Source: a virus (lineage: Duplodnaviria > Caudoviricetes). From it: a stretch of DNA of 64,000 nt. The notes under the pieces are model-generated. The model saw nothing but the letters and a program-made list of their open reading frames with translations, did not search any database and was not told the DNA's origin. Location: IMG/VR virus record IMGVR_UViG_3300020374_000001; one strand, given 5' to 3'. Shown piece by piece: positions 25,905-64,000 of this stretch (positions within the stretch are counted from its first letter, which is position 1; every line of letters starts with the position of its first letter). The position numbers and the translations under genes are program-made.

Positions 25905-26549
25905 ATGAAGTTAATATCCGAAGAAATCACAAACGCAGAATACCTAGTTGAAGAAACTAACGGTAAGAAGAATTATAAAATTAGAGGCGTTTTTCTACAA
26001 TCAGACTTAAAAAATAGAAATGGACGTGTCTATCCCAAAGACATATTGAATAATGAGGTAGAAAGATACAATAGAGAATTTATCAACAAAAAACGTGCAT
26101 TTGGTGAGTTAGGACATCCTGACGGACCAACGGTAAATCTGGAAAGAGTTAGTCATATGATTACTAAACTTGCACCAGATGGACAGAATTTTGTAGGTGA
26201 AGCAAAGATAATGAACACACCATACGGTAAGATTGTAAAAGGTCTTATTGACGAAGGTGCTCAACTAGGAGTATCTAGTAGAGGTATGGGTTCGTTAGAA
26301 ACAAGAGGTGGCGCAAACTATGTAAAAGATGACTTTTACTTGGCAACCGCTGCTGATATAGTCGCAGATCCAAGTGCTCCAGACGCTTTCGTAGAAGGTA
26401 TTATGGAGAGTAAAGAGTGGGTTTGGGACAACGGAGTACTCGTAGAAAAGAGCATAGAATCTTGGAAACGAGAGATAGAAAGTGCGAAAAGACACGCTTT
26501 AGCAGAAGCTAAAATAAAAGTCTTTAAAAACTTTCTTTCAAATCTCTAG
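25905..26549 (+). CDS. gp21: Prohead protease gp21
   Basis: NRNGRVYP, GELGHP, GVSSRGMGS, DIVADPSAP. Confidence 0.96.
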   Translation: MKLISEEITNAEYLVEETNGKKNYKIRGVFLQSDLKNRNGRVYPKDILNNEVERYNREFINKKRAFGELGHPDGPTVNLERVSHMITKLAPDGQNFVGEAKIMNTPYGKIVKGLIDEGAQLGVSSRGMGSLETRGGANYVKDDFYLATAADIVADPSAPDAFVEGIMESKEWVWDNGVLVEKSIESWKREIESAKRHALAEAKIKVFKNFLSNL

Positions 26550-27858: not shown

Positions 27859-29214
27859 ATGTATTTATCAGAACAATACGAAAAAAAATGGCAGCCTGTC
27901 CTAGAACACCCTGACTTACCAAAAGTTACGGATTCTTACAGACGAGCCGTTACAGCTACTATCTTGGAAAACCAAGAAAGAGCTATGAAAGAGGACGCTG
28001 GTTTCTTAAACGAAGCAGCTCCTACAAACTCTACTGGTTCTTCAGTAGCAAATTGGGATCCAATCCTAATTTCACTAGTTAGAAGAGCTATGCCAAATCT
28101 TATCGCATACGATATTGCTGGTGTTCAGCCAATGACTGGACCAACTGGTCTTATCTTTGCAATGAGAAGTAGATACACTTCACAAACAGGAAACGAAGCA
28201 TTATTTGATGAAGCAGATACAGACTTCTCTAGCAGAAACGCTGCTGGTGACTCAAGTCAAGGTGCTGATTCAGGTGCTACTCCTACAGATCATTCAGGAA
28301 CAAACCCAAGCGTATTAAATGACGCTGCTGCTGGTTCAACAGATTATAGTAGAGGTCAAGGTATGACAACTGCTGCTGCTGAAGCACTAGGGGATGCTAC
28401 TGGAAATCAGTTTGCTGAGATGGCTTTCTCAATTGAGAAATCTACGGTTACTGCTAGAAGCAGAGCGTTAAAGGCAGAATACACTATGGAACTTGCTCAA
28501 GACTTAAAAGCAATCCACGGTTTAGATGCTGAAACGGAATTGGCAAACATCTTATCTGCTGAAATCCTTGCGGAAATCAATAGAGAAGTTGTAAGAACAA
28601 TTTACATCAATGCAGAAAAAGGTGCTGCTGTTAACACAACTACAGCTGGTATCTTTGATTTAGACACAGACTCAAACGGAAGATGGTCAGTTGAGAGATT
28701 CAAAGGACTAATGTTCCAATTAGAGAGAGATGCTAATAGAATTGCACAAAGAACAAGAAGAGGAAAAGGTAATATGATTATCTGTTCTGCTGACGTTGCT
28801 AGTGCTCTTCAAATGGCTGGTGTTTTAGATTACACTCCTGCATTAAACAACAATCTATCTGTTGACGATACTGGTAATACTTTTGCTGGTACTCTAAACG
28901 GAAGATACAAAGTATATATTGATCCATACTCAGCTAATTCAGCTGCGAAACAATACTACGTTGTCGGTTACAAAGGTACTTCACCTTATGACGCTGGTAT
29001 TTTCTACTGCCCATATGTACCATTACAAATGGTAAGAGCAGTTGGACAAGATACTTTCCAACCAAAAATTGGTTTCAAAACTAGATACGGTTTAGTTGCG
29101 AACCCATTTGCTGAAACTGGTGCTCAATCAGGTGCTGCTACTGCTGTAAACCACTCTGGTTCTGCAAATAGTAACAGATACTACCAAAGAGTACAAGTTG
29201 CTAACATAATGTAA
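27859..29214 (+). CDS. gp23: Major capsid protein gp23
   Basis: GVQPMTGPTGLIFAMR, ELAQDLKAIHGLDAE, FYCPYVPL, GFKTRYG. Confidence 0.98.
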   Translation: MYLSEQYEKKWQPVLEHPDLPKVTDSYRRAVTATILENQERAMKEDAGFLNEAAPTNSTGSSVANWDPILISLVRRAMPNLIAYDIAGVQPMTGPTGLIFAMRSRYTSQTGNEALFDEADTDFSSRNAAGDSSQGADSGATPTDHSGTNPSVLNDAAAGSTDYSRGQGMTTAAAEALGDATGNQFAEMAFSIEKSTVTARSRALKAEYTMELAQDLKAIHGLDAETELANILSAEILAEINREVVRTIYINAEKGAAVNTTTAGIFDLDTDSNGRWSVERFKGLMFQLERDANRIAQRTRRGKGNMIICSADVASALQMAGVLDYTPALNNNLSVDDTGNTFAGTLNGRYKVYIDPYSANSAAKQYYVVGYKGTSPYDAGIFYCPYVPLQMVRAVGQDTFQPKIGFKTRYGLVANPFAETGAQSGAATAVNHSGSANSNRYYQRVQVANIM

Positions 29215-29278: not shown

Positions 29279-29293
29279 GGCATAAATAAATGT

Positions 29294-47989: not shown

Positions 47990-48429
47990 GTGAAGAAATA
48001 CAATGGTCGCCAGAGAGTATGTTAGAGGTCACCATAAAACAACCTGACGATTTCCTAAAAGTTAGAGAAACCCTTACAAGAATTGGTGTGGCAAGTAGAA
48101 AAGATAAGACGTTATTTCAATCTTGTCATATATTACACAAACAAGGTAAATACTATATCGTACATTTTAAAGAACTTTTTGCTTTAGATGGCAAGAAGGC
48201 GACTTTAGTTGAAAATGATATACAAAGAAGAAACACAATCGCTATTTTATTACAAGACTGGAACCTAATTGATATAGTTAAAAAAGAGGATGCGAATAAT
48301 AAAGCACCTTTAAGTCAGATAAAAGTTTTACCATTCAAAGAGAAAAAAGAATGGAATTTATCTGCTAAATATAACATAGGAAAAAAGGTCACAACCGAGA
48401 ATAGCGAAAATGCAAATACCAAAGTTTAA
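47986..48429 (+). CDS. regA: Translational repressor RegA
   Basis: DDFLKVRETLTRIG, QSCHILHKQGKYYIVHFKELF.LDG. Confidence 0.97.
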   Translation: MSEEIQWSPESMLEVTIKQPDDFLKVRETLTRIGVASRKDKTLFQSCHILHKQGKYYIVHFKELFALDGKKATLVENDIQRRNTIAILLQDWNLIDIVKKEDANNKAPLSQIKVLPFKEKKEWNLSAKYNIGKKVTTENSENANTKV

Positions 48430-49906
48430 AGAATTTTTTGTAGAACAAGATTTAGAACGTAAGAAGAAACCTATTACGGTTGCTATTATTACAATAGCAG
48501 ATTCAGACGACCCTAAAGAAAATACAACTGCTGATCTTATATCAAAAGCGTGTAAGAAAAAAGGCATAAAGTGTATTATAGTAAATACAAAAACTTCAAT
48601 CATAACAGATAAAGACGAAGATAAAAATACGTTAACGGTGTATAACTATGATGGTGAAGGTGCTAAACACACTTTCATAGGTAAAGATACCGTTTGTATT
48701 TGTAGAGGTGGTGCTTTACAAGATGAAGGTGGTTTATCTTTAATATCTGCCTTTCAAAACTCACAATCATTTATGTTAAACACAAGAGCGGCAATGCTTA
48801 CTTGTGATAACAAATTAACTTCAGCATTATTATTTGAAAAGTTTGGTATACCTACACCTAGAACAGCGTATGTATCAAACGAAAAGAATTTAAAAACTGC
48901 ATTAGATAAAATCGGTGGTAAGTTTCCTGTCATATTAAAAACATTAACAGGTACACAAGGTGTCGGTGTAATCAAAGTTGAAAGTTATGAAGGTCTTGTT
49001 GCAACCGTTCAGGCAATGTGGAAACTAGAAGCAGAAATGTTAATACAAGAATATATGAAAACTGATTTTGATGTAAGAACTTTTGTAGTAGATAATAAAA
49101 TATTTGCAAGTACAAAAAGAACTCATAGTAGTTATGACTTTAGATCAAATACACATAGAGGTGCTGAGGCAGAACCATATAAGTTAAGTGAAGAAGAAAT
49201 AGAATTAGTTTTAAAAACTGCTAGATTATCCAGAGCATATATGTGTGGCGTAGATCACATAGTTTATAAAAATAAACCATACGTATTAGAAATAAACGGA
49301 AGTCCAGGATCAGGTGCTGACTATGAAGGTTATCAGTACAAAGATTATTATTCTGATCCAGAACCATCAGGCAGAATAGATGGTGAAACTATGATGTCTT
49401 ATGTAATTGATTGGATTGAAGATAGAACTCATTGGGATAGACAATCACTTATAGAATGTGGTTGGTTAGAAACTATGGACGTAGATGAAATAGGAAAAGT
49501 TAGAGTTAAGTTTGATACAGGTAATGGTTCTCAAGCGTGTGCTTTACACGCAGATGAAATTATAGAATCAAAAGGTAAAATTGTAAAATGGAAATACGAT
49601 GGTAAAGTTTATAGTAAACCTAAATTTGGTGTAAGTAAAGTATTCAGATCAAATGCAACTAACGAACCATCTGAAACAAGACCTACCGTAAAAATGGCAC
49701 TTACATTTAATGGATTTACATATCCAGATATAGAAGTAGGATTAGATAGTAGACCTAGATCAGGTTCAGACTTATTAGTTAATAGAGATTTAATGCGACA
49801 GATGAATGTTGCCGTTAATCCTAATAGAACTTTTGTATTAAGTAAACGATTAAGACCTATTGAAAAAGAAGGAAAACAAGACAAAGTTGGATTTGAAAAG
49901 AAATAG
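48410..49906 (+). CDS. RimK-like ATP-grasp ligase fused to a RimK-associated aspartyl-protease-like domain
   Basis: FPVILK...GTQG.GV, QEY...DFDVR, FRSNTH.G, VLEINGSPG; C-terminal KFDTG. Confidence 0.85.
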   Translation: MQIPKFKEFFVEQDLERKKKPITVAIITIADSDDPKENTTADLISKACKKKGIKCIIVNTKTSIITDKDEDKNTLTVYNYDGEGAKHTFIGKDTVCICRGGALQDEGGLSLISAFQNSQSFMLNTRAAMLTCDNKLTSALLFEKFGIPTPRTAYVSNEKNLKTALDKIGGKFPVILKTLTGTQGVGVIKVESYEGLVATVQAMWKLEAEMLIQEYMKTDFDVRTFVVDNKIFASTKRTHSSYDFRSNTHRGAEAEPYKLSEEEIELVLKTARLSRAYMCGVDHIVYKNKPYVLEINGSPGSGADYEGYQYKDYYSDPEPSGRIDGETMMSYVIDWIEDRTHWDRQSLIECGWLETMDVDEIGKVRVKFDTGNGSQACALHADEIIESKGKIVKWKYDGKVYSKPKFGVSKVFRSNATNEPSETRPTVKMALTFNGFTYPDIEVGLDSRPRSGSDLLVNRDLMRQMNVAVNPNRTFVLSKRLRPIEKEGKQDKVGFEKK

Positions 49907-54312: not shown

Positions 54313-55561
54313 TTACGCTGACGAAAATGGATTGCCTATTATGGATCAACTCTCTTTTGAGAGAATGACAAATGATATTGGCAAAGAACAATTTAGATTA
54401 GACTTAGCAGAATACATAGAGAAGAATAGACCTAAATTTCCTCTAAAGAAAATAACTTTAGATGATGTAAGAAACTCTTTTTATGATTTACAAAAACAAG
54501 ATATTACAAAGTATTGTAAACTTAATGACAATAATGTTATGGAAAAATATAATGATTACAAATATAATTATAAAGATTATGGTCTAGGTATTATAGACGC
54601 ACCATCAACTTATAATAATGTATCTAATTATTTTCACCAAGAATTAAGATTAAATTGTTCTAGTTATAGTTTCAAAGCACCTTTAGATGTATGGTACAAT
54701 GGTACTGCAAAAGATATATGGCGTTGTCTAGGTCCTATCTGGCGAGGTATCAACAATATGAAGAAGGTTATGGTTGACGGTAAAGAAGAATTAAGAGGTG
54801 GTCAACTATCTGAAGCAAGTTATTTAAGTGCATTTAGATTAGGTACATATATTGCAACTCAATTTAAACCTAATGTTGCTAAAACAATTTACCATTTAAC
54901 CAATGCAAAAAGAGTTTTAGATACAAGTTGTGGATGGGGAGATAGACTTGCTGGTTTCTTTGCCTCAGACGCTGAGGAATATATAGGATGTGATCCTAAC
55001 CCTAATACATATAAACAATATATGAAACAGATAGAAGTATATAATAGTTTTCTATCTAAACCTAAAAAAGTTAAAATATATAATTGTGGTGCTGAAGATT
55101 TACCTTGGGATGAAATAAAAGATATTGATTGTTCATTTACAAGTCCACCATATTTTTCTACTGAAGAATATAATAAAGGTGGTGAGAAAGAAGAAAATCA
55201 ATCGTGGTTTAAATTTAATGAGTATGAAAAATGGCGTGATGATTTCTTTTTACCTGTATCTAAAAAATGTTTTGAAAGATCAAAACATACTATAATTAAT
55301 ATTATGGATCCACAAGTAAAAGGTAAAAGATATAGAAGTTGTGATGAAGTTGTTGATATGTTAAAAGATAATTTTGTAGGTCAAATAGGTATGAGAATTA
55401 TGCAAAGACCTAAATCAGATAAACTATTTGAAACAGAAAAAGATAAGCAAGAGTTTATGAATAAAACATTTATAGAAAATGTATGGTGTTTTTCTAAAGA
55501 TAAAAATGTAGATTTATTTAGCACAGCAAGGAAAGGAACACTTGATAGTTTCTTTTCATAA
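54299..55561 (+). CDS. Second SPPY amino-methyltransferase-fold DNA modification enzyme
   Basis: LDTSCGWGDRLAG motif I, FTSPPY motif IV; start at 54275 or 54299. Confidence 0.85.
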   Translation: MTLSNYADENGLPIMDQLSFERMTNDIGKEQFRLDLAEYIEKNRPKFPLKKITLDDVRNSFYDLQKQDITKYCKLNDNNVMEKYNDYKYNYKDYGLGIIDAPSTYNNVSNYFHQELRLNCSSYSFKAPLDVWYNGTAKDIWRCLGPIWRGINNMKKVMVDGKEELRGGQLSEASYLSAFRLGTYIATQFKPNVAKTIYHLTNAKRVLDTSCGWGDRLAGFFASDAEEYIGCDPNPNTYKQYMKQIEVYNSFLSKPKKVKIYNCGAEDLPWDEIKDIDCSFTSPPYFSTEEYNKGGEKEENQSWFKFNEYEKWRDDFFLPVSKKCFERSKHTIINIMDPQVKGKRYRSCDEVVDMLKDNFVGQIGMRIMQRPKSDKLFETEKDKQEFMNKTFIENVWCFSKDKNVDLFSTARKGTLDSFFS

Positions 55562-57351: not shown

Positions 57352-58714
57352 TGAAAGAATAGAATATACAATATTAAGAAATCTTATATTCAATGAAGAT
57401 TATACTAGAAAAGTTTTACCTTTTATAAACGAAATCTTTTTTCCTAAAAGAGAAGAACAAATTTTATTCCAAGAGATTAATACTTTTGTATTGAAGTATA
57501 AAAATCTGCCATCAAAAGAATCAATATTAATTGAACTAGGCAATCGTAAAGATATAAACGAAGAAGAAAATAGAATAGTAAAAGAGTTAATCAACTCATT
57601 AAATCCTGAAGAAATAGATCAACAATGGTTGTTAGATACAACAGAAAAGTTTTGTAAAGATCGTGCTGTTCATAATGCAGTATTAGACGGTATAAAAATT
57701 TTAGATGGTAAAGATAAAAAGAGAACACAAGAGGCAATACCTAGTATTCTTGCAGACGCATTAGCAGTTAGTTTTGATAAACATATAGGGCACGATTATA
57801 TAGAAGACGCAGACGACAGATTTAAATTTTATCATACAAAAGAGAAGAAGTATCAATTTGATTTATCTTACTTCAACAGAATTACAAAAGGCGGTGTACC
57901 AAGTAAAACATTAAATATTGCTCTTGCAGGTACGGGTGTAGGTAAGTCTTTGTTTATGTGTCATTGTGCTAGTGCTTATTTGGCACAAGGTTTAAATGTA
58001 TTGTATATTACTTTAGAAATGGCGGAAGAAAGAATTGCTGAAAGAATTGACGCAAATTTATTAGATGTATCTATGGATGACTTACATCATTTACCAAAAG
58101 ACTTATATGATTCTAAAATATTAAAAGTAAAAAACAGATCAACTGGTAAATTAATTATCAAAGAATATCCAACTGCGTCTGCTCACGCAGGTCATTTTAG
58201 AGCATTGTTTAATGAACTATCATTAAAGAAAAGTTTTAGACCAGATGTTGTCTTTATAGATTATCTTAATATATGTACTAGTGCTAGATTTAAAGGTGGT
58301 AATGTAGGATCATATTTCTTTATCAAGGCAATTGCTGAAGAATTAAGAGGTCTTGCTGTTGAGTTTAATGTACCAATCTTTAGTGCAACACAAACAACTA
58401 GAACTGGTTATGTATCAACTGATATTGGTTTAGAAGATACGGCAGAGTCTTTTGGTTTACCTGCAACTGCTGACTTTATGTTTGCTTTACAATCAAATGA
58501 GGAACTAGAACAACTAGGTCAAATGAAAGTTAAACAATTAAAGAATAGATACAATGATCCAGGTATTAATAGATCATTTATTATAGGTGTTGATAGGGCA
58601 AAAATGAAATTATATGATGTTGAAAACTCAGCACAAAACATAGTAGATAAAGGAAAGGAACCTGAACTTAAATTAGAAGACCCTTACGATAAGTTTTCAG
58701 ATTTCAAAGTATAA
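57344..58714 (+). CDS. gp41: Replicative helicase gp41
   Basis: AGTGVGKS, LEMAEERIAERIDAN, IDYLNI, ESFGLPATAD, QLKNRY. Confidence 0.97.
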   Translation: MNNERIEYTILRNLIFNEDYTRKVLPFINEIFFPKREEQILFQEINTFVLKYKNLPSKESILIELGNRKDINEEENRIVKELINSLNPEEIDQQWLLDTTEKFCKDRAVHNAVLDGIKILDGKDKKRTQEAIPSILADALAVSFDKHIGHDYIEDADDRFKFYHTKEKKYQFDLSYFNRITKGGVPSKTLNIALAGTGVGKSLFMCHCASAYLAQGLNVLYITLEMAEERIAERIDANLLDVSMDDLHHLPKDLYDSKILKVKNRSTGKLIIKEYPTASAHAGHFRALFNELSLKKSFRPDVVFIDYLNICTSARFKGGNVGSYFFIKAIAEELRGLAVEFNVPIFSATQTTRTGYVSTDIGLEDTAESFGLPATADFMFALQSNEELEQLGQMKVKQLKNRYNDPGINRSFIIGVDRAKMKLYDVENSAQNIVDKGKEPELKLEDPYDKFSDFKV

Positions 58715-58715
58715 T

Positions 58716-58979
58716 ATGCCTAAAAAACAAAGAGTTAGATTTCATAGAGGTGATAGAAAACCTAAATCGGATAAAGAATATGATACTCTATCTTACAAAG
58801 TTAAGATGAAGAAAAAAGGTCGTAAATTTATATGGCAAGTTATAGAAAAACCTAATAACAATGCTGTTGCAGAATACTTTTTTGAAGAAGACGCACAAAA
58901 ACTCGCAGACTTTCAAAACAAACATAGAGTCTGGCAAATGAACGGCGGAATACCACAATTTCTTTGGACCAGGGCTTGA
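58716..58979 (+). CDS. Basic hypothetical protein
   Basis: 87 aa; FEEDA..L..F......GG.PQFL. Confidence 0.6.
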   Translation: MPKKQRVRFHRGDRKPKSDKEYDTLSYKVKMKKKGRKFIWQVIEKPNNNAVAEYFFEEDAQKLADFQNKHRVWQMNGGIPQFLWTRA

Positions 58980-58987
58980 CACTCCCT

Positions 58988-58995
58988 TATAAATA
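58988..58995 (+). promoter_or_regulatory. Late promoter TATAAATA
   Basis: Exact consensus upstream of ORF 59014. Confidence 0.8.
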
Positions 58996-59013
58996 TGTTA
59001 TAGAGAGAGAACT

Positions 59014-60084
59014 ATGGCAGATTATTTACAAGGAGGAGCACAAACAACTATAACAGCAACTATAACGGAGCTGTTTCCAGCATTGTGGTTCAACACTAAA
59101 AACAAAAAACCCACCAACGTAAAAGAACTACAAGATTTCATTTACGATTACGACAATAAAAACAACAAAGCATACATAGACGCACAAGATAATAAAGCAG
59201 GCAAAGATAATATCTCTCTAGCATTTTCTAGGATTAATCCTACATTGTTTAATGAAAAAATGCAAAATGCTTTTGCTATTACTTGTTATCTATTTCATAC
59301 TCACGCAGATAATCCTATTAGTTATGTTGTATGGGGATATAGAAAAAAACCTAAAGGTGTTCCTGAAAATCATTCAGGTGATGTATTCATTATGCACAAG
59401 AATGGAGAGATTACAGGAGTTAGTTTAAAAGCAGGTAAAGAGAAATCTATGGAACCTAAATTAAACACTTATGTAGGAACAACTTTAAGACAACCTTATT
59501 ATAAAGCACTTGACTCTCAAGCAGAAAATAAGTTGAAAAGAAGATTGTGGAATGAAGTATATTCTAAAATTAAAGTACCTAAAACGGTAAATGAAAACAA
59601 TTATTATATGCAAAGTAATGATAGAACAAAACCTAATCCAGATATGGTTTTAAGTTTAGTAGCATTTTTTAAGAGAGATTTTAATAAGTTTGACCAAGGT
59701 TATGGTGTAATGAATAAAGTTTGTAGAGAAGAGGTTGCTAAGATGGTAAATAAAAATGTCAAAGCAACAAAAGAATGGATTACAAAAGAATTTAGATTAC
59801 AGAAAGCACAAAAAGTACCTTTAATAGTTGTTAAAGCAATTAAAGATACATACAAAGAACTAGGTGATCCATTGCCTAATTTTTTACCTAAAGTAACTAA
59901 AGTTAAAGCATACTTAAATACGTCTTCAGTACAAGAATGGTTTATAGATTTAATGAGTAATAAGAAAAAATTAACTTTAAAAATGACTATTAGATCGGAT
60001 GCTGGGTTTAGACCTGAAAAACCTAAAGGTAAATTAGGTAAATTTAATATGTTAAAATTGCAGTATAATGGAGTAAAAAAATAA
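59014..60084 (+). CDS. PD-(D/E)xK-superfamily nuclease-like protein
   Basis: N-terminal helix TE, then SGDVFI..NGEITGVSLK (D...SxK variant). Confidence 0.55.
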   Translation: MADYLQGGAQTTITATITELFPALWFNTKNKKPTNVKELQDFIYDYDNKNNKAYIDAQDNKAGKDNISLAFSRINPTLFNEKMQNAFAITCYLFHTHADNPISYVVWGYRKKPKGVPENHSGDVFIMHKNGEITGVSLKAGKEKSMEPKLNTYVGTTLRQPYYKALDSQAENKLKRRLWNEVYSKIKVPKTVNENNYYMQSNDRTKPNPDMVLSLVAFFKRDFNKFDQGYGVMNKVCREEVAKMVNKNVKATKEWITKEFRLQKAQKVPLIVVKAIKDTYKELGDPLPNFLPKVTKVKAYLNTSSVQEWFIDLMSNKKKLTLKMTIRSDAGFRPEKPKGKLGKFNMLKLQYNGVKK

Positions 60085-60092
60085 CATAAATA
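60085..60092 (+). promoter_or_regulatory. Late promoter variant CATAAATA
   Basis: Intergenic, upstream of ORF 60149. Confidence 0.65.
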
Positions 60093-60148
60093 GTATTATT
60101 GATTTATATGGAAAATGTGATTATATTAATGGAACAAATTGGAGAGAA

Positions 60149-61372
60149 ATGTTTAGTTTTAAAGGTTTTATTACCACAGAAAAGAATACACACCTTGAAC
60201 ATTTAGAAGACGATATAATTAATCGTGGTTCAGATGGTGGACGTAATGCAATAAGTTTTTTAAAGTCAGTAAGAAATATGCTGGCAGGTTCTTCAAGCGG
60301 ACGAGTTAATATGTCTGTTAAGTGGGACGGCGCACCTGCTATTATCGCAGGTAAAAATCCTGAGAACGGCAAATTTTTTGTCGGCACAAAATCAGTCTTC
60401 AACAAAACACCTAAAATCAATTACACACCTGGCGATATTGCAAGAAATCATAGTGGTCCTGTTGCTGCTAAATTACTTGTATGTTTAAGAGAATTAAAAA
60501 GACTAGGTATCAATGGTATCTATCAAGGCGATTTATTATTTACAAAAGGTGATACTAAACTTGCAGGTATAGATGGTCAAAAAATGATAACCTTTACACC
60601 TAATACTATCACATATGCAGTACCAATAAACTCTAGTTTAGGAAGAAGAATTAGCAGAGCAAGATTAGGTATTGTATTTCACACTTACTACACAGGCAAA
60701 AGTATGTCATCACTAACAGCAGGGTTTGGAAGTATTAGTGGTAAGACAGGTTCAACAGCAGTTTATTTAGCAAGTGCAGGATATACTGATACGTCTGGTT
60801 CATCTACATTTACGTCTAGTGAGTTAGCAAGATTTGATGGACTAATAAGAATGGCAGAAGGTTCTTTACTAAAGGCGGCACCATTATTAAATGTTATGAA
60901 ATCAAATGATAGTTTATCAGTAGGGTTTAGATTAAAGTCATTTTTTAATTACTATATAAAATCTTCTAAAGGTAACTCTATGGCAAAAGTTAAAGTATTA
61001 CAAGATATGTTTAGAGAGTATTACGATCAAATTTTAACAGCAGAAATTTCTGATAGAAAAACTGCTAGAGGTAAAGAAAAATATATTAAAGCAAAAGCAG
61101 ATGGTTTAAAATTTATAGATAGAAATAGAAGTGCATTATATTTTGCTATTGCTTCTCACGTAAGTTTAGGTAATGCAAAGAATTATTTAATACAAAAACT
61201 ATCGCAAATACAAAGTATAGGTCATTTTATTAGAACACCTAATGGTTATAGAGTAACTAATCCAGAAGGATTTGTTGCAGTAGATAAAAAAGCAGGTGCA
61301 GTTAAACTTGTAGATAGATTAGAATTTAGTAGAGCAAACTTTACGATTGCTAAAGATTGGGTAAAAGGATAA
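60149..61372 (+). CDS. Conserved marine-myovirus protein with ligase-type covalent nucleotidyltransferase motifs
   Basis: KNTHLEHLED; SVKWDG (motif I KxDG), QGDLLF (III), PEGFV (IV), VKLV (V). Confidence 0.65.
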   Translation: MFSFKGFITTEKNTHLEHLEDDIINRGSDGGRNAISFLKSVRNMLAGSSSGRVNMSVKWDGAPAIIAGKNPENGKFFVGTKSVFNKTPKINYTPGDIARNHSGPVAAKLLVCLRELKRLGINGIYQGDLLFTKGDTKLAGIDGQKMITFTPNTITYAVPINSSLGRRISRARLGIVFHTYYTGKSMSSLTAGFGSISGKTGSTAVYLASAGYTDTSGSSTFTSSELARFDGLIRMAEGSLLKAAPLLNVMKSNDSLSVGFRLKSFFNYYIKSSKGNSMAKVKVLQDMFREYYDQILTAEISDRKTARGKEKYIKAKADGLKFIDRNRSALYFAIASHVSLGNAKNYLIQKLSQIQSIGHFIRTPNGYRVTNPEGFVAVDKKAGAVKLVDRLEFSRANFTIAKDWVKG

Positions 61373-62067
61373 TGAAAAGAACTTTACAAGAAGTTAGAGA
61401 ATACATTAACGAAGGTGTTTACGATCCTGGTATATTCAAAGCATTTTTTCTTGCAGGTGGACCTGGGTCAGGTAAAACTTTTGTAACTTCAAGTGCGTTT
61501 GCAGGTACAGGTTTAAAACTAGTTAATTCAGATGTTAAGTTTGAAAGAGATTTAAGAAAAGCAAATCTATCATTAAAAATGCCAGATGAAGAAAAATATT
61601 TTAGAGATAGAATTAGACAAGGTGCAAAGGCATTTGTAGGTAAACAATTAGATCAATACTTACAAGGTAGATTAGGTATGATTATAGATAGTACAGCAAG
61701 AGATTATTCAGTTATACAAAGACAATATAATTTATTAAGAAACATTGGATACGATTGTTATATGGTATTTGTTAATACAAGTTTAGATGTTGCAATAGAA
61801 AGAAATAGAACTAGAAGTAGATCAATACCTGAATACATAGTACAAAAAAGTTGGAAAGGTGTTCAAGCAAATATGGGTGCGTTTCAAAAAGTATTTGGAC
61901 ATAGTAAAATGTTAATAGTAGATAACAATAGAGATGATAAAGAATTAGTTACACAAACTTTAAATACTGCTTCAAGGTTTATTAGAAGTAGATTAAGAAC
62001 TAAACCAGAAAATGGAATTGCAATGTCTTGGATTAAAAGAGAATTAGAGGCAAAGAAAAGAATATGA
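61372..62067 (+). CDS. P-loop kinase (zeta-toxin/polynucleotide-kinase-like)
   Basis: FLAGGPGSGKT, NSD, IIDST, RNRTRSR lid; start at ATG 61372. Confidence 0.85.
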   Translation: MKRTLQEVREYINEGVYDPGIFKAFFLAGGPGSGKTFVTSSAFAGTGLKLVNSDVKFERDLRKANLSLKMPDEEKYFRDRIRQGAKAFVGKQLDQYLQGRLGMIIDSTARDYSVIQRQYNLLRNIGYDCYMVFVNTSLDVAIERNRTRSRSIPEYIVQKSWKGVQANMGAFQKVFGHSKMLIVDNNRDDKELVTQTLNTASRFIRSRLRTKPENGIAMSWIKRELEAKKRI

Positions 62068-64000
62068 GCATAGGATTTAAAGATTACTTATTTAAATATT
62101 TAAAAGATAAGCAACAAGATGAGGCAGTCATAGATATACCTAGACAGACTTATGCTACAGGTGTGTTCTCTAATCCTGAAGATAAGGATCCAAAAATTAA
62201 ACCTGAAATTATCGGTCAGATAATGAAACAATTTACAGAATTTAAAAAAGAATATCCTATATTAGATTATTCTTTAATAGGTTCTATCTTAACTAAAAGA
62301 TATAGAGATGACGCTGATTTAGATATAAATGTTTTGTTTGATGTACCTAAAGAGAAACAAGAAGAAGAAAGATTAAGATTATCGCAAAAGTTTTTATCTG
62401 CTAAAAATCCTGATAACATACAAGGTAAATTAATACCTGGTACAAGACACCCTATTAATTATTATTTTATTACAGACAAAGAAACTTATGACGATCAGAA
62501 TAAAAAGGCAGACGCAGTATTTGATATAGGTAAAAATAAATTTATTAAACGACCTGAGGATTTTGAATTTGATCCTGCGTTATATGTAAAAGATTTTGAG
62601 AAGAAAGTACAAGAGATAGATGTAATCAAAGGCGAATTAAAAAGAGATATAATAGATTACAAAGAATTAAAAGGACTAAAAACAAATGATGTTTTGAATT
62701 TACAAGATAAAGTAAAAGACAAGTTAGAAGAAATAGAAGATAGTATAGAAGACATTATAAAAATAGGTGATATGGTTGACGCTGAAAGAAGAAAAGCGTT
62801 TGATAGTGATATGTCGCCTGAAGAAATAAGACAATACGGTATAAAAAATAGATTACCTAAAGCAGTAATCTATAAGATGTTAGAGAAATACCATTACATA
62901 ACTTTCTACAAATATTGTAAGAAGATATTAGATGATGGTGTAGTAACTGATAAAGAGATTGACGATTTAGATATAAACGAGGCAAGAAGAAAGTCAATTG
63001 CATTTACATTTGGTAGATTTAATCCACCAACATCTGGACACGAAAAACTAATTAAGAAAGTTGCAAGTGTTAGAGCAGATACTTTTAAAATATATTTAAG
63101 TAGAAGTAATGATCCTAAAAAGAATCCATTATCGCCTAGAACAAAACTAACTCATATGAAAATGATGTTTCCTAGATATAGTAGAAACATTGAAATCAAT
63201 AACACTAATATGATTTTAGATATAGCAAGTAAATTACATAGACAAGGATTTACTGAAATCTTTATGGTCGTAGGTAGTGATAGAGTTAGAGAATTTGAAA
63301 CAATACTTAACAAGTATAATGATGTAAGAAGTAGGCACGGATATTATAACTTTGCTAATATTAATGTATTATCAGCAGGTGAAAGAGATCCAGATTCAGA
63401 AGGTGTATCAGGTATGTCAGCAAGTAAGATGAGGGACGCTGCTACTAAAGATGATTATAACACATTTAAGAAAGGTGTACCTACAGGATATAGAAATGCA
63501 GATGATTTATTTAAAGATGTAAGAAAAGGAATGAGATTAGTAGCAAGTATGGAATACGATACTAACTTTAGACCGATAAAAACTTTACAAGAATTTGAAC
63601 AAAATCAAATAAGAGATTTATATATTAGAGAAATGATCTTTAATATAGGAGACAAAATTAAATATATCAAAGAAGATATTGATGGTAAAGTGATTAGAAA
63701 AGGTACAAATTATATTGTACTAGAAGATAACAACAACAATTTACACAAAGCGTGGATATGGGATTGTTTACCAAATCCAGCAGATAGAGAGGCACAAGTG
63801 AGAGAACACAATTTAGATGTAGATTACGGCTTTACAGCAGTTTCTACTAAAGAAGATATGGATAGGTTGCCACAAGATAAAGACGTTAAGAAAAAAGACG
63901 GAACACAACCTAAAAAGTATTACAAAGATATGTCAAAAGACACAAAATCAAAAAGAGCAGATCATTTTAAAAAGACAGATACTACTAAAAATGACAATGA
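62064..64000 (+). CDS. Fusion protein: Pol-beta-type nucleotidyltransferase + HIGH-superfamily cytidylyl/adenylyltransferase + further domains (runs off the window end)
   Basis: Manual translation: IGSILTKRYRDDADLDINV (GS...DxD), then FGRFNPPTSGH, VGSDR, MSASKMR; open to 64000; not in the ORF track. Confidence 0.85.
   Translation, partial: MSIGFKDYLFKYLKDKQQDEAVIDIPRQTYATGVFSNPEDKDPKIKPEIIGQIMKQFTEFKKEYPILDYSLIGSILTKRYRDDADLDINVLFDVPKEKQEEERLRLSQKFLSAKNPDNIQGKLIPGTRHPINYYFITDKETYDDQNKKADAVFDIGKNKFIKRPEDFEFDPALYVKDFEKKVQEIDVIKGELKRDIIDYKELKGLKTNDVLNLQDKVKDKLEEIEDSIEDIIKIGDMVDAERRKAFDSDMSPEEIRQYGIKNRLPKAVIYKMLEKYHYITFYKYCKKILDDGVVTDKEIDDLDINEARRKSIAFTFGRFNPPTSGHEKLIKKVASVRADTFKIYLSRSNDPKKNPLSPRTKLTHMKMMFPRYSRNIEINNTNMILDIASKLHRQGFTEIFMVVGSDRVREFETILNKYNDVRSRHGYYNFANINVLSAGERDPDSEGVSGMSASKMRDAATKDDYNTFKKGVPTGYRNADDLFKDVRKGMRLVASMEYDTNFRPIKTLQEFEQNQIRDLYIREMIFNIGDKIKYIKEDIDGKVIRKGTNYIVLEDNNNNLHKAWIWDCLPNPADREAQVREHNLDVDYGFTAVSTKEDMDRLPQDKDVKKKDGTQPKKYYKDMSKDTKSKRADHFKKTDTTKNDN

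Follow-up and report, generated by a model that had tools for sequence, protein, structure and literature searches.

Internal protein IPIII of bacteriophage T4 enters the prohead by means of its first ten residues (MKTYQEFIAE), in which residues 4 and 7 serve targeting and residues 8 and 10 processing, with the gp21 protease cutting after L/I-x-E (PMC9026906). Among repair systems, the Pol-β nucleotidyltransferase (NTase) RlaP accompanies RNA ligases (PMC7824862), and in cyanophages the product of T4-GC190 has been treated as an auxiliary metabolic enzyme or as a homologue of NMN adenylyltransferase (NMNAT), with neither a leader nor a ligase-like neighbour mentioned in the available parts of the sources (PMC3037559, PMC9146016, PMC10665884). 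Here, a cluster of four genes (A, B, C, and D/E) is described from positions 58,988 to 64,000 of the IMG/VR virus record IMGVR_UViG_3300020374_000001 (Caudoviricetes), of which a stretch of 64,000 nucleotides, referred to as the window, was analysed. Protein B, of the DUF6267 family, is assigned to the lysine-nucleotidyl ligase superfamily, C is a predicted kinase, and D/E carries a Pol-β NTase domain (D) followed by a HIGH-type NTase domain (E). The unit formed by these genes is tentatively read as head-packaged enzyme cargo with T4-like leaders, serving most likely in the healing and sealing of polynucleotide ends.

Protein B and its partner enzymes

The features of gene B on which its assignment is based are as follows.

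60149–61372, + strand: gene B, 407 residues, DUF6267 (PF19782, E 2e-117)
60320–60331, + strand: motif I of B, KWDG, residues 58–61, with K58 as the predicted nucleotidyl-lysine
60815–61204, + strand: helical insertion of B, residues 223–352, placed between motifs IIIa and IV from the AF2 secondary structure
61265–61318, + strand: motifs IV (EGFVA) and V (AVKLVDR) of B, placed by conservation and aligned to T4 Rnl1

The initial annotation of this DNA had pointed to the ligase motifs KWDG, QGD, EGFV, and KLV in the open reading frame (ORF) at 60149, and all of these are present and conserved. Across 72 aligned homologues (34–48% identity), no substitution is seen at K58, D60, G374, or K386, and G61, Q126-G127-D128, and E373 are found in at least 90% of the sequences; along the chain, these residues succeed one another as ligase motifs I, III, IV, and V do. 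F149, N152, and Y156 are conserved as well, their match to motifs III/IIIa being by order only. The AF2 model of B has a pLDDT of 90, with residues 1–10 disordered, and contains no OB domain, the chain ending after motif V.

A ligase fold had been set as a test of the original proposal, and ligases were returned by two structural searches. In VIA-align, an exhaustive structural search of 48,161 PDB chains, all matches of at least 150 aligned residues (154–201), about a dozen, were ligases, the remaining rows being short helical matches to the insertion at residues 223–352. The highest Z-scores were those of REL1 from Trypanosoma brucei and NgrRnl from Naegleria (7.6), followed by fungal Trl1 (7.1 and 6.9), T4 Rnl2 (6.8), T4 Rnl1 (6.4), archaeal RNA ligases (6.2), and DNA ligases (5.5–5.8). 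Foldseek against BFVD gave family members and then RNA ligases as the only named class, the best being that of Atu_ph07 (E 7e-4, probability 0.99), with those of RM378 and giant viruses also found. In an hhalign comparison, the B profile paired PEGFVAV...KLV with residues 222–242 of T4 Rnl1 (IEGYVAV...FKIK), at low probability and with a single-sequence template; this segment of T4 Rnl1 holds the essential residues E227, G228, and K240 of motifs IV and V.

Sequence searches alone were less informative. Searches with phmmer and with profiles against PDB sequences gave nothing relevant for B, the ESM Atlas, with its own family skipped, gave unnamed viral clusters only, and no papers on DUF6267 were found in the limited library searched. 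The Pfam model RNA_lig_T4_1 was touched weakly by four of the 72 homologues (best E 6e-4) and not by the window protein, on which ground B was rejected as a member of the T4 Rnl1 family. A gp30-type ATP-dependent DNA ligase was likewise rejected, as the model has no OB domain and DNA_ligase_A_M (PF01068) has no match in the genomes of relatives. In a scan for other ligases that covered five genomes in all, those of four relatives and T4, HTVC008M, S-PM2, P-SSM2, and S-SZBM1 all carry DUF6267 and gave no match to DNA_ligase_A_M, DNA_ligase_aden, RNA_ligase, or RNA_lig_T4_1. In T4, gp30, Rnl1, and Rnl2 are present and DUF6267 is absent, with the RNA_lig_T4_1 model recovering T4 Rnl1.

Taken together, the conserved motifs and the predicted structure make the identification of B as a lysine-nucleotidyl ligase superfamily enzyme with an RNA-ligase-like core solid at the superfamily level. 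That its nearest relatives by modelled fold are RNA ligases is held with moderate confidence. As judged from sequence and model, B is outside the recognised ligase families tested and represents a previously unrecognised family, with an inserted helical domain and no OB domain. In P-SSM2 (NC_006883, 58606–59469), DUF6267 lies far from the gp41 region and matches the model in two pieces (1–264 and 312–374), each in an open frame of 303 residues; either the helical insertion may be largely absent there, or the gene may be split.

The genes that follow B encode the partner enzymes.

61372–62067, + strand: gene C, 231 residues, P-loop kinase of the polynucleotide kinase (PNK)/PSTK/zeta type (Pfam AAA_33)
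62064–63998, + strand: gene D/E, at least 645 residues, running off the window; Pol-β NTase, HIGH domain, and basic tail
62280–62324, + strand: Pol-β signature G-S-x10-D-x-D; G73, S74, D85, and D87 invariant in 20 sequences
63030–63041, + strand: HIGH signature T-S-G-H within GRFNPPTSGH; G25 and H26 of alignment A4 invariant
63417–63434, + strand: second HIGH signature S-A-S-K-M-R (ISxTxxR type); S152 and R157 invariant, S154 and K155 at 90% or more

The call of a PNK/zeta-like kinase is borne out by matches of C above the model cut-offs to both AAA_33 (1.3e-14, 55 bits, cut-off 27) and Zeta_toxin (4.7e-10, 39.7 bits, cut-off 22.3), with a Walker A motif, GGPGSGKT, at residues 29–36. PSTK (seryl-tRNA(Sec) kinase, TIGR03574) was matched at 3.4e-8, below the model cut-off, and the polynucleotide kinase family phrog_505 at 4e-8, below the family threshold. 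These matches support the assignment of C as a putative polynucleotide-kinase-type P-loop kinase.

The fusion of a Pol-β NTase to a HIGH-type NTase, also proposed initially, was confirmed by both Pfam domains and both signatures. The Pol-β NTase occupies residues ~20–300 (NTP_transf_2, 2.5e-4, 21.8 bits, cut-off 21) and the HIGH adenylyltransferase-like domain residues ~307–480 (CTP_transf_like, 2.3e-5, 25.1 bits, cut-off 21; phrog_395, 3e-65), followed by the basic tail, and relatives of the whole protein are 660–953 residues long. The model of D has a pLDDT of 75, and Foldseek placed it with MNT, AadA/ANT, and CD-NTase folds at probabilities of up to 0.99; the named top matches, through at least the first 33 rows, are all Pol-β-fold NTases. 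CCA-adding enzymes, to which the domain had been likened at the outset, rank 35th and lower, and this identity was not adopted because minimal NTases, ANTs, and CD-NTases match better. There was no match of D to Pfam RlaP. For E, the nearest PDB profiles are PPAT, NadR, and archaeal NMNAT (E 0.02–0.12), the best NCBIfam match is the NadR NMN adenylyltransferase domain (nadR_NMN_Atrans, 9.4e-5, 21.8 bits versus a cut-off of 341), and NadD models score 14–16 bits against cut-offs of 112–167. An identified NMNAT or glycerol-3-phosphate cytidylyltransferase was therefore rejected, the matches being far below the family cut-offs. E is homologous to the cyanophage 'cytidylyltransferase' T4-GC190, with 37–40% identity over ~260 residues.

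Predicted late expression, probable head-targeting leaders and virion proteomes

The window derives from a marine T4-like myovirus, as judged by its T4-type head and replication genes, and has a G+C content of ~30%. No tRNA genes were found in the window, and megablast of the region against phage records gave no close DNA match. At the protein level, Pelagibacter phage HTVC008M is the closest isolate (~50% identity); cyanomyoviruses and Methylophilales phage Melnitz come next, and all of these are Kyanoviridae-like. Searching the whole of 1.84 billion cluster representatives yielded 2,765 relatives of DUF6267 (50% clustering), and 468 phage records hold a copy; locus comparisons were made on a set of 80 related loci.

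58988–58995, + strand: T4-type late promoter box TATAAATA, exact, 18 nt upstream of the gene A ATG
60085–60092, + strand: late-box-like CATAAATA, one mismatch, 56 nt before gene B
Upstream of the late block, in the window: UvsX and gp41 helicase (Pfam-type matches)

The four genes come after gp41 and one small ORF, and both the ORFs and the N-termini quoted for them in the initial annotation were exactly as given. The first of the two late boxes it had listed, at 58988, is an exact TATAAATA. Although the 14 copies of TATAAATA in the window represent no excess over the 15.9 expected by chance, every one is on the + strand, and almost without exception they lie a short way ahead of an ORF start, mainly that of a structural gene. 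A box of the form [TC]ATAAATA is found within 100 nt upstream of the A homologues in three of three related loci, in two of them as exact TATAAATA. Across the 80 related loci, TATAAATA lies within 100 nt upstream of 38% of DUF6267 genes, compared with 6% of other ORFs and 0% of gp41 genes, and a late unit starting here is therefore a family trait. The second box, at 60085, fared less well: the same 8-mer recurs twice in the window, at 29281 (within an ORF) and at 55557, so that with its one mismatch it is weak evidence and was not accepted as a proven late promoter. The stretch 58600–64000 contains neither a terminator-like site nor a strong sigma-70-like promoter. The ATG of C overlaps the stop codon of B (TAATG), and that of D/E overlaps the stop codon of C likewise. 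These features support a single predicted late transcription unit of A, B, C, and D/E from the box at 58988, within which B, C, and D/E are, by their overlapping stop and start codons, translationally coupled.

Leaders were collected with a strict pattern, [FYW]..[FYW][ILVM].E within the first 30 residues. This is found in 38% of B homologues, 48% of HIGH-first (E) homologues, and 36% of Pol-β-first (D) homologues, as against 3% of other ORFs; the 19 'other' ORFs with a leader are neighbours in the same clusters, including adenylate kinase, HAD-like DxDxT proteins, and small proteins. Of 60 distinct leaders, 38 have Glu at residue 10 and 18 have it at residue 9, Ala is the commonest residue after it, and F/Y occupies both aromatic positions in all 60 motif-bearing leaders. 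Of 150 DUF6267 family representatives, 45 carry a head-targeting leader. The family leader, M-K-x-F-x-x-[FY]-[LI]-x-E↓A (the arrow marking the predicted gp21 site), coincides with the capsid targeting sequence (CTS) of T4 at positions 4, 7, 8, and 10. Examples from relatives are MKSFLQFISE↓A and MKTYQRFMTE↓R on HIGH enzymes, MRFKDFIKE↓S on Pol-β enzymes (F-K-D-[FY]-I-K-E↓S in most; alignment A2), and MKFTEYLTE↓G and MYSFKQYLNE↓A on DUF6267. Cyanophage DUF6267 copies have no leader and start directly at KNTHLEHLED.

The leaders of the window proteins, and the head genes relevant to their processing, are as follows.

60149–60181, + strand: B leader MFSFKGFITTE; CTS-like F4, F7, and I8, with T at 10 and E at 11
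61372–61413, + strand: C leader MKRTLQEVREYINE; ends Y-I-N-E↓G, a canonical gp21-type site
62064–62123, + strand: D leader MSIGFKDYLFKYLKDKQQDE; F5 and Y8, ends Q-D-E↓A, with Q at P3
62973–62981, + strand: gp21-type site I-N-E↓A at the D–E junction; E then A/G in relatives
25905–26549, + strand: gp21 prohead protease homologue (Peptidase_S77, E 5e-34), with gp22, gp23, and the portal gp20 alongside
27859–29214: gp23; F-L-N-E↓A at residues 49–53, Pfam Gp23 domain from residue 63

A gp21-type L/I-x-E at the leader end is carried by most relatives of B and D/E. In the D leader, E20 is invariant before [AS]-[VI]-I-D-I-P, and in nearly all D–E fusions an E followed by A/G lies ~8–10 residues before the HIGH domain, with P3 often I/L/M/V. 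The kinase homologues that start with the kinase domain all have [LI]-x-E directly before G-[VLI]-Y/N-D-P/K, and of the aromatic and aliphatic positions the window C leader has only Y11-I12. Both the scaffold gp22 (T4_CASP, 2e-73) and the capsid protein gp23 (Gp23, 4e-152) are encoded in the window, and the L-N-E↓A site of gp23 fits a gp21-cut propeptide shorter than the 65 residues of T4. An ORF of 498 residues at 48410–49906 also has a leader-like start, MQIPKFKEFFVE, which misses the strict pattern at one position only.

Published virion proteomes bear on the HIGH enzyme. T4-GC190 was detected in S-SM1 virions with 25 counts (PMC3037559), and its P-SSM2 copy, an E homologue by sequence comparison, starts MKSFSQFLTE. 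The HIGH homologue was also detected in virions of S-CREM2 (PMC10665884), whose authors remarked on the recurrence of cytidylyltransferases and kinases in cyanophage virions (PMC10665884), and of S-SZBM1 (PMC9146016). The S-SZBM1 enzyme has the leader MRFRQFIIE↓A and its adjacent DUF6267 has none; this untagged DUF6267 is not named among the detected virion proteins in the available part of that source (PMC9146016), and to that extent tag presence agrees with virion detection, in this one phage. A hypothetical protein of ~455 residues directly downstream of the S-SZBM1 HIGH enzyme (L084:5804–7177) was also detected in the S-SZBM1 virion proteome; this protein and its P-SSM2 counterpart (L083:9431–10786) have no canonical leader. 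Within the limited library searched, neither a leader on the HIGH enzyme nor a ligase nature of DUF6267 is mentioned, capsid targeting sequence and cyanophage together led to a T4 review only, and the P-HM2 and field papers do not mention transcript timing of the cyanophage homologue.

Collectively, family enrichment, the positional match to T4, a gp21 in the window, and the HIGH-enzyme proteomes uphold the earlier proposal of CTS leaders; its other part, cleavage of the leaders, is not supported for window B and D/E, where the sites are noncanonical. B, C, and D/E are probably packaged in the phage head and injected with the DNA, with cleavage and ejection in the window phage proposed by analogy with T4.

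Several neighbouring genes deserve note. In close relatives, a tagged adenylate kinase (PF00406, 2.9e-40) lies between DUF6267 and the PNK-type kinase (L003:7783–8346, L004:6636–7256, and L007:6064–6651), an insert absent from the window. In other loci, HAD-like DxDxT (GGLTIFDIDDTLF) proteins with canonical leaders are found just downstream of DUF6267 (L068:8483–9202, L069:5785–6537, and L065:2744–3493), and these could be the 3'-phosphatase that is absent from the window. The small basic ORF between gp41 and the late unit (58716–58979, 87 residues, start MPKKQRVRFHRGDRKPKSDKEY) has no family match and is kept at this position in ~45 of the 80 related loci; gp41 is directly 5' of it in the window, and inserted genes intervene in other loci.

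59014–60084, + strand: gene A, 356 residues (phrog_2496, E 1.7e-62)

Gene A occupies a variable slot 5' of the ligase-like gene and is found in only three of the 80 related loci. The protein had been called PD-(D/E)xK-like, and that call was not confirmed: no match was found in Pfam, NCBIfam, or PDB sequence and profile searches, and its sole support comes from the ESM Atlas, where nine of the 30 nearest clusters are RE_HaeIII (the HaeIII restriction-endonuclease family, score 0.96), and from the invariant D123...S137-L-K139 of its homologues. A nuclease identity is thus a lead.

Candidate functions of the late unit

The order gp41 ... DUF6267 ... (kinase) ... (Pol-β)+HIGH is conserved in relatives, and by locus comparison the constant core is the ligase-like enzyme with the HIGH-type enzyme. 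HIGH and DUF6267 are fused in both orders (S-PM2d138, P0128, P0165, P0166, P0216, P0219, and others), the AAA_33 kinase is fused to DUF6267 in P0233, and kinase-PolB-HIGH fusions are found in L012 and L041. By these domain fusions, the ligase, kinase, and HIGH domains are linked in a single pathway, and the ligase-kinase fusion, the PNK-type kinase, the Pol-β NTase, and the HAD-like neighbours suggest the healing and sealing of polynucleotide ends.

In the reading tentatively preferred here, the ~10-residue leader M-K-x-F-x-x-[FY]-[LI]-x-E would attach each protein to the prohead's scaffolding core, in the manner of the T4 internal proteins and Alt. The gp21 encoded in the window would then trim the leader after Glu and may also separate D from E at I-N-E↓A, and the enzymes would exit the head together with the DNA at infection. 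In the cell, the kinase would restore the 5' phosphate, the Pol-β enzyme may replace lost nucleotides, and the ligase would seal the ends, with the HIGH enzyme supplying or recycling an adenylylated cofactor or intermediate. The substrate could be RNA ends, DNA nicks, or NAD/nucleotides.

A number of observations weigh against this reading. For B, the VIA-align Z-scores of 5.5–7.6 are middling by the tool's own scale, and Foldseek of the model against the PDB gave nothing meaningful, the top matches being carbonic anhydrase and ACC filaments. As to the pathway, the cluster in the window contains no 3'-end-healing enzyme, the HIGH domain is without an established role in end repair, and the Pol-β domain is not specifically RlaP-like or CCA-like. 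With respect to packaging, only the kinase among the window proteins has a leader with the canonical [LI]xE, B having T-T-E and D/E Q-D-E, and in the kinase this tripeptide borders directly on a conserved domain block and is possibly structural rather than a cleavage site. The virion-proteome support comes from cyanophages and for the HIGH homologue only, with none from pelagiphage-type relatives, and the S-CREM2 authors cautioned that abundant enzymes may co-purify with virions (PMC10665884). Moreover, the constant pairing of ligase and HIGH enzyme is explained by no known repair system. One idea is that the DUF6267 ligase takes the dinucleotide made by its HIGH partner (e.g. NAD+) as adenylyl donor, which would explain the frequent fusion of both.

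An extension of the cargo reading, which is possible though rather doubtful, is that marine T4-like phages, pelagiphages and cyanophages alike, retain the capsid-targeting system of T4 and inject by it a multi-enzyme kit centred on the DUF6267 RNA-ligase family and its obligate HIGH partner; the kit would repair RNA or DNA ends or restore the nucleotide cofactor of the ligase before phage genes are expressed, a form of pre-emptive counter-defence.

Alternatively, DUF6267 could be the DNA ligase of marine T4-like phages, acting on Okazaki fragments, in recombination, or on nicks of the incoming genome, with the kinase and Pol-β enzyme serving DNA single-strand-break repair and packaging being secondary or lineage-specific. 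Consistent with this, the four DUF6267 genomes scanned lack the recognised ligase families and T4 shows the reverse, DUF6267 lies directly after uvsX and gp41, the cyanophage copies are leaderless, and DNA ligases are among the structural matches of B (Z 5.5–5.8). The complementary distribution is, however, based on five genomes only, RNA ligases outscore DNA ligases and are the only named class in BFVD, and the model of B has no OB domain. A late promoter upstream in 38% of relatives and a head-targeting leader on 45 of 150 family representatives also argue against a DNA ligase of this kind, which is considered unlikely.

The weak affinities of the HIGH domain raise another explanation, in which the block is a nucleotide/NAD+ salvage kit, with the HIGH enzyme as NMN adenylyltransferase and the kinase acting on a nucleoside or nucleotide, that would make up for NAD+ or adenylates lost to host defences or starvation. 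NadR NMN adenylyltransferase is the best NCBIfam match of the domain, albeit far below the cut-off, its profile is nearest PPAT, NadR, and archaeal NMNAT, and the close relative L003 has the tagged adenylate kinase (PF00406, 2.9e-40) within its block. In jumbo phages, fusions of a HIGH NTase with a P-loop kinase act in NAD salvage (PMC7824862), and the same suggestion was made by the S-CREM2 authors (PMC10665884). Yet the HIGH-family matches are all weak and indicate no substrate, the matches of the kinase are to the PNK, PSTK, and zeta families rather than to the NadR ribosylnicotinamide kinase family, and no Nampt was seen in the cluster. Salvage also leaves the ligase-like enzyme, the tightest-linked partner of HIGH, unexplained unless the ligase uses NAD+, and as an account of the whole block it appears quite improbable.

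That the enzymes are instead ordinary unpackaged intracellular late proteins, their leader a feature of translation start or of a recombination cassette and the virion detections carry-over, would suit the window B and D/E leaders without a canonical cleavage site, the published co-purification caveat (PMC10665884), and the S-PM2 and Syn9 proteomes, which did not detect the HIGH enzyme, but is very unlikely given that the leader is enriched at least 10-fold over other ORFs at a fixed distance from Met1, agrees with all four experimentally defined T4 CTS positions, and stands on unrelated folds, and that the HIGH enzyme was found in three independent proteomes, with tag presence agreeing with virion detection in S-SZBM1 as far as the partial source extends.

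The cargo reading of the late unit, if it holds, has implications beyond the window. Most marine T4-like phages, a group that counts among the most abundant ocean viruses, carry DUF6267 together with its adenylyltransferase partner, and a ligase identity for DUF6267 would fill a gap in phages that are without a recognisable DNA or RNA ligase. A head-loading tag would explain the repeated appearance of a 'metabolic' enzyme in cyanophage virion proteomes, would extend the cargo-delivery mechanism of T4 to a distant family, and predicts further injected proteins. End repair on entry, if true, would represent a novel, pre-packaged form of counter-defence, and the enzyme a possible new ligase source for biotechnology.

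Comparison with known systems

The RNA-repair systems T4 Pnk with Rnl1/Rnl2, Trl1, Pnkp/Hen1, baculovirus/iridovirus Pnk-ligase, and RlaP resemble the cluster in their combination of ligase, PNK-type kinase, and Pol-β NTase. The three lie in one operon here and occur as fusions in relatives, and HAD-like DxDxT proteins are present in some clusters related to that of the window. In contrast to those systems, the window ligase falls outside RNA_lig_T4_1 (Rnl1), RNA_ligase (Rnl2), and two DNA-ligase models, has an inserted helical domain, and is accompanied by neither a phosphatase nor a cyclic phosphodiesterase. It is constantly paired with a HIGH adenylyltransferase, an enzyme that has no place in known RNA repair systems, and the T4 RNA-repair enzymes are not known as virion cargo.

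Phage NAD+ reconstitution (NARP1/NARP2 and the jumbo-phage NadR-like HIGH NTase with kinase) shares with the cluster a HIGH adenylyltransferase accompanied by a P-loop kinase, the two being fused in relatives. Unlike those pathways, the window has a kinase of a different family and lacks Nampt, Adps, and Namat; the known pathways do not account for the link to a ligase-like enzyme, and the NMNAT similarity of the HIGH domain is weak.

T4-GC190, a core cyanomyovirus gene, encodes an E homologue with the same leader (MKSFSQFLTE in P-SSM2) and, like E, follows gp41 and DUF6267 in gene order, whereas E in the window is fused behind a Pol-β NTase and follows the kinase.

With respect to delivery, the closest parallel is the packaging of T4 internal proteins and Alt. 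The predicted cargo of the window is made up of enzymes that handle nucleotides and polynucleotides and are unrelated in sequence to the internal proteins or Alt, its leaders are partly degenerate, and cleavage and ejection of its proteins are proposed. The two systems nevertheless have in common a leader of ~10 residues with aromatic residues at 4 and 7, I/L at 8, and E at 10, with A as the usual next residue, together with gp21 (Peptidase_S77), gp22, and gp23 in the same genome, late expression, and, as with Alt, enzymes as the predicted cargo.

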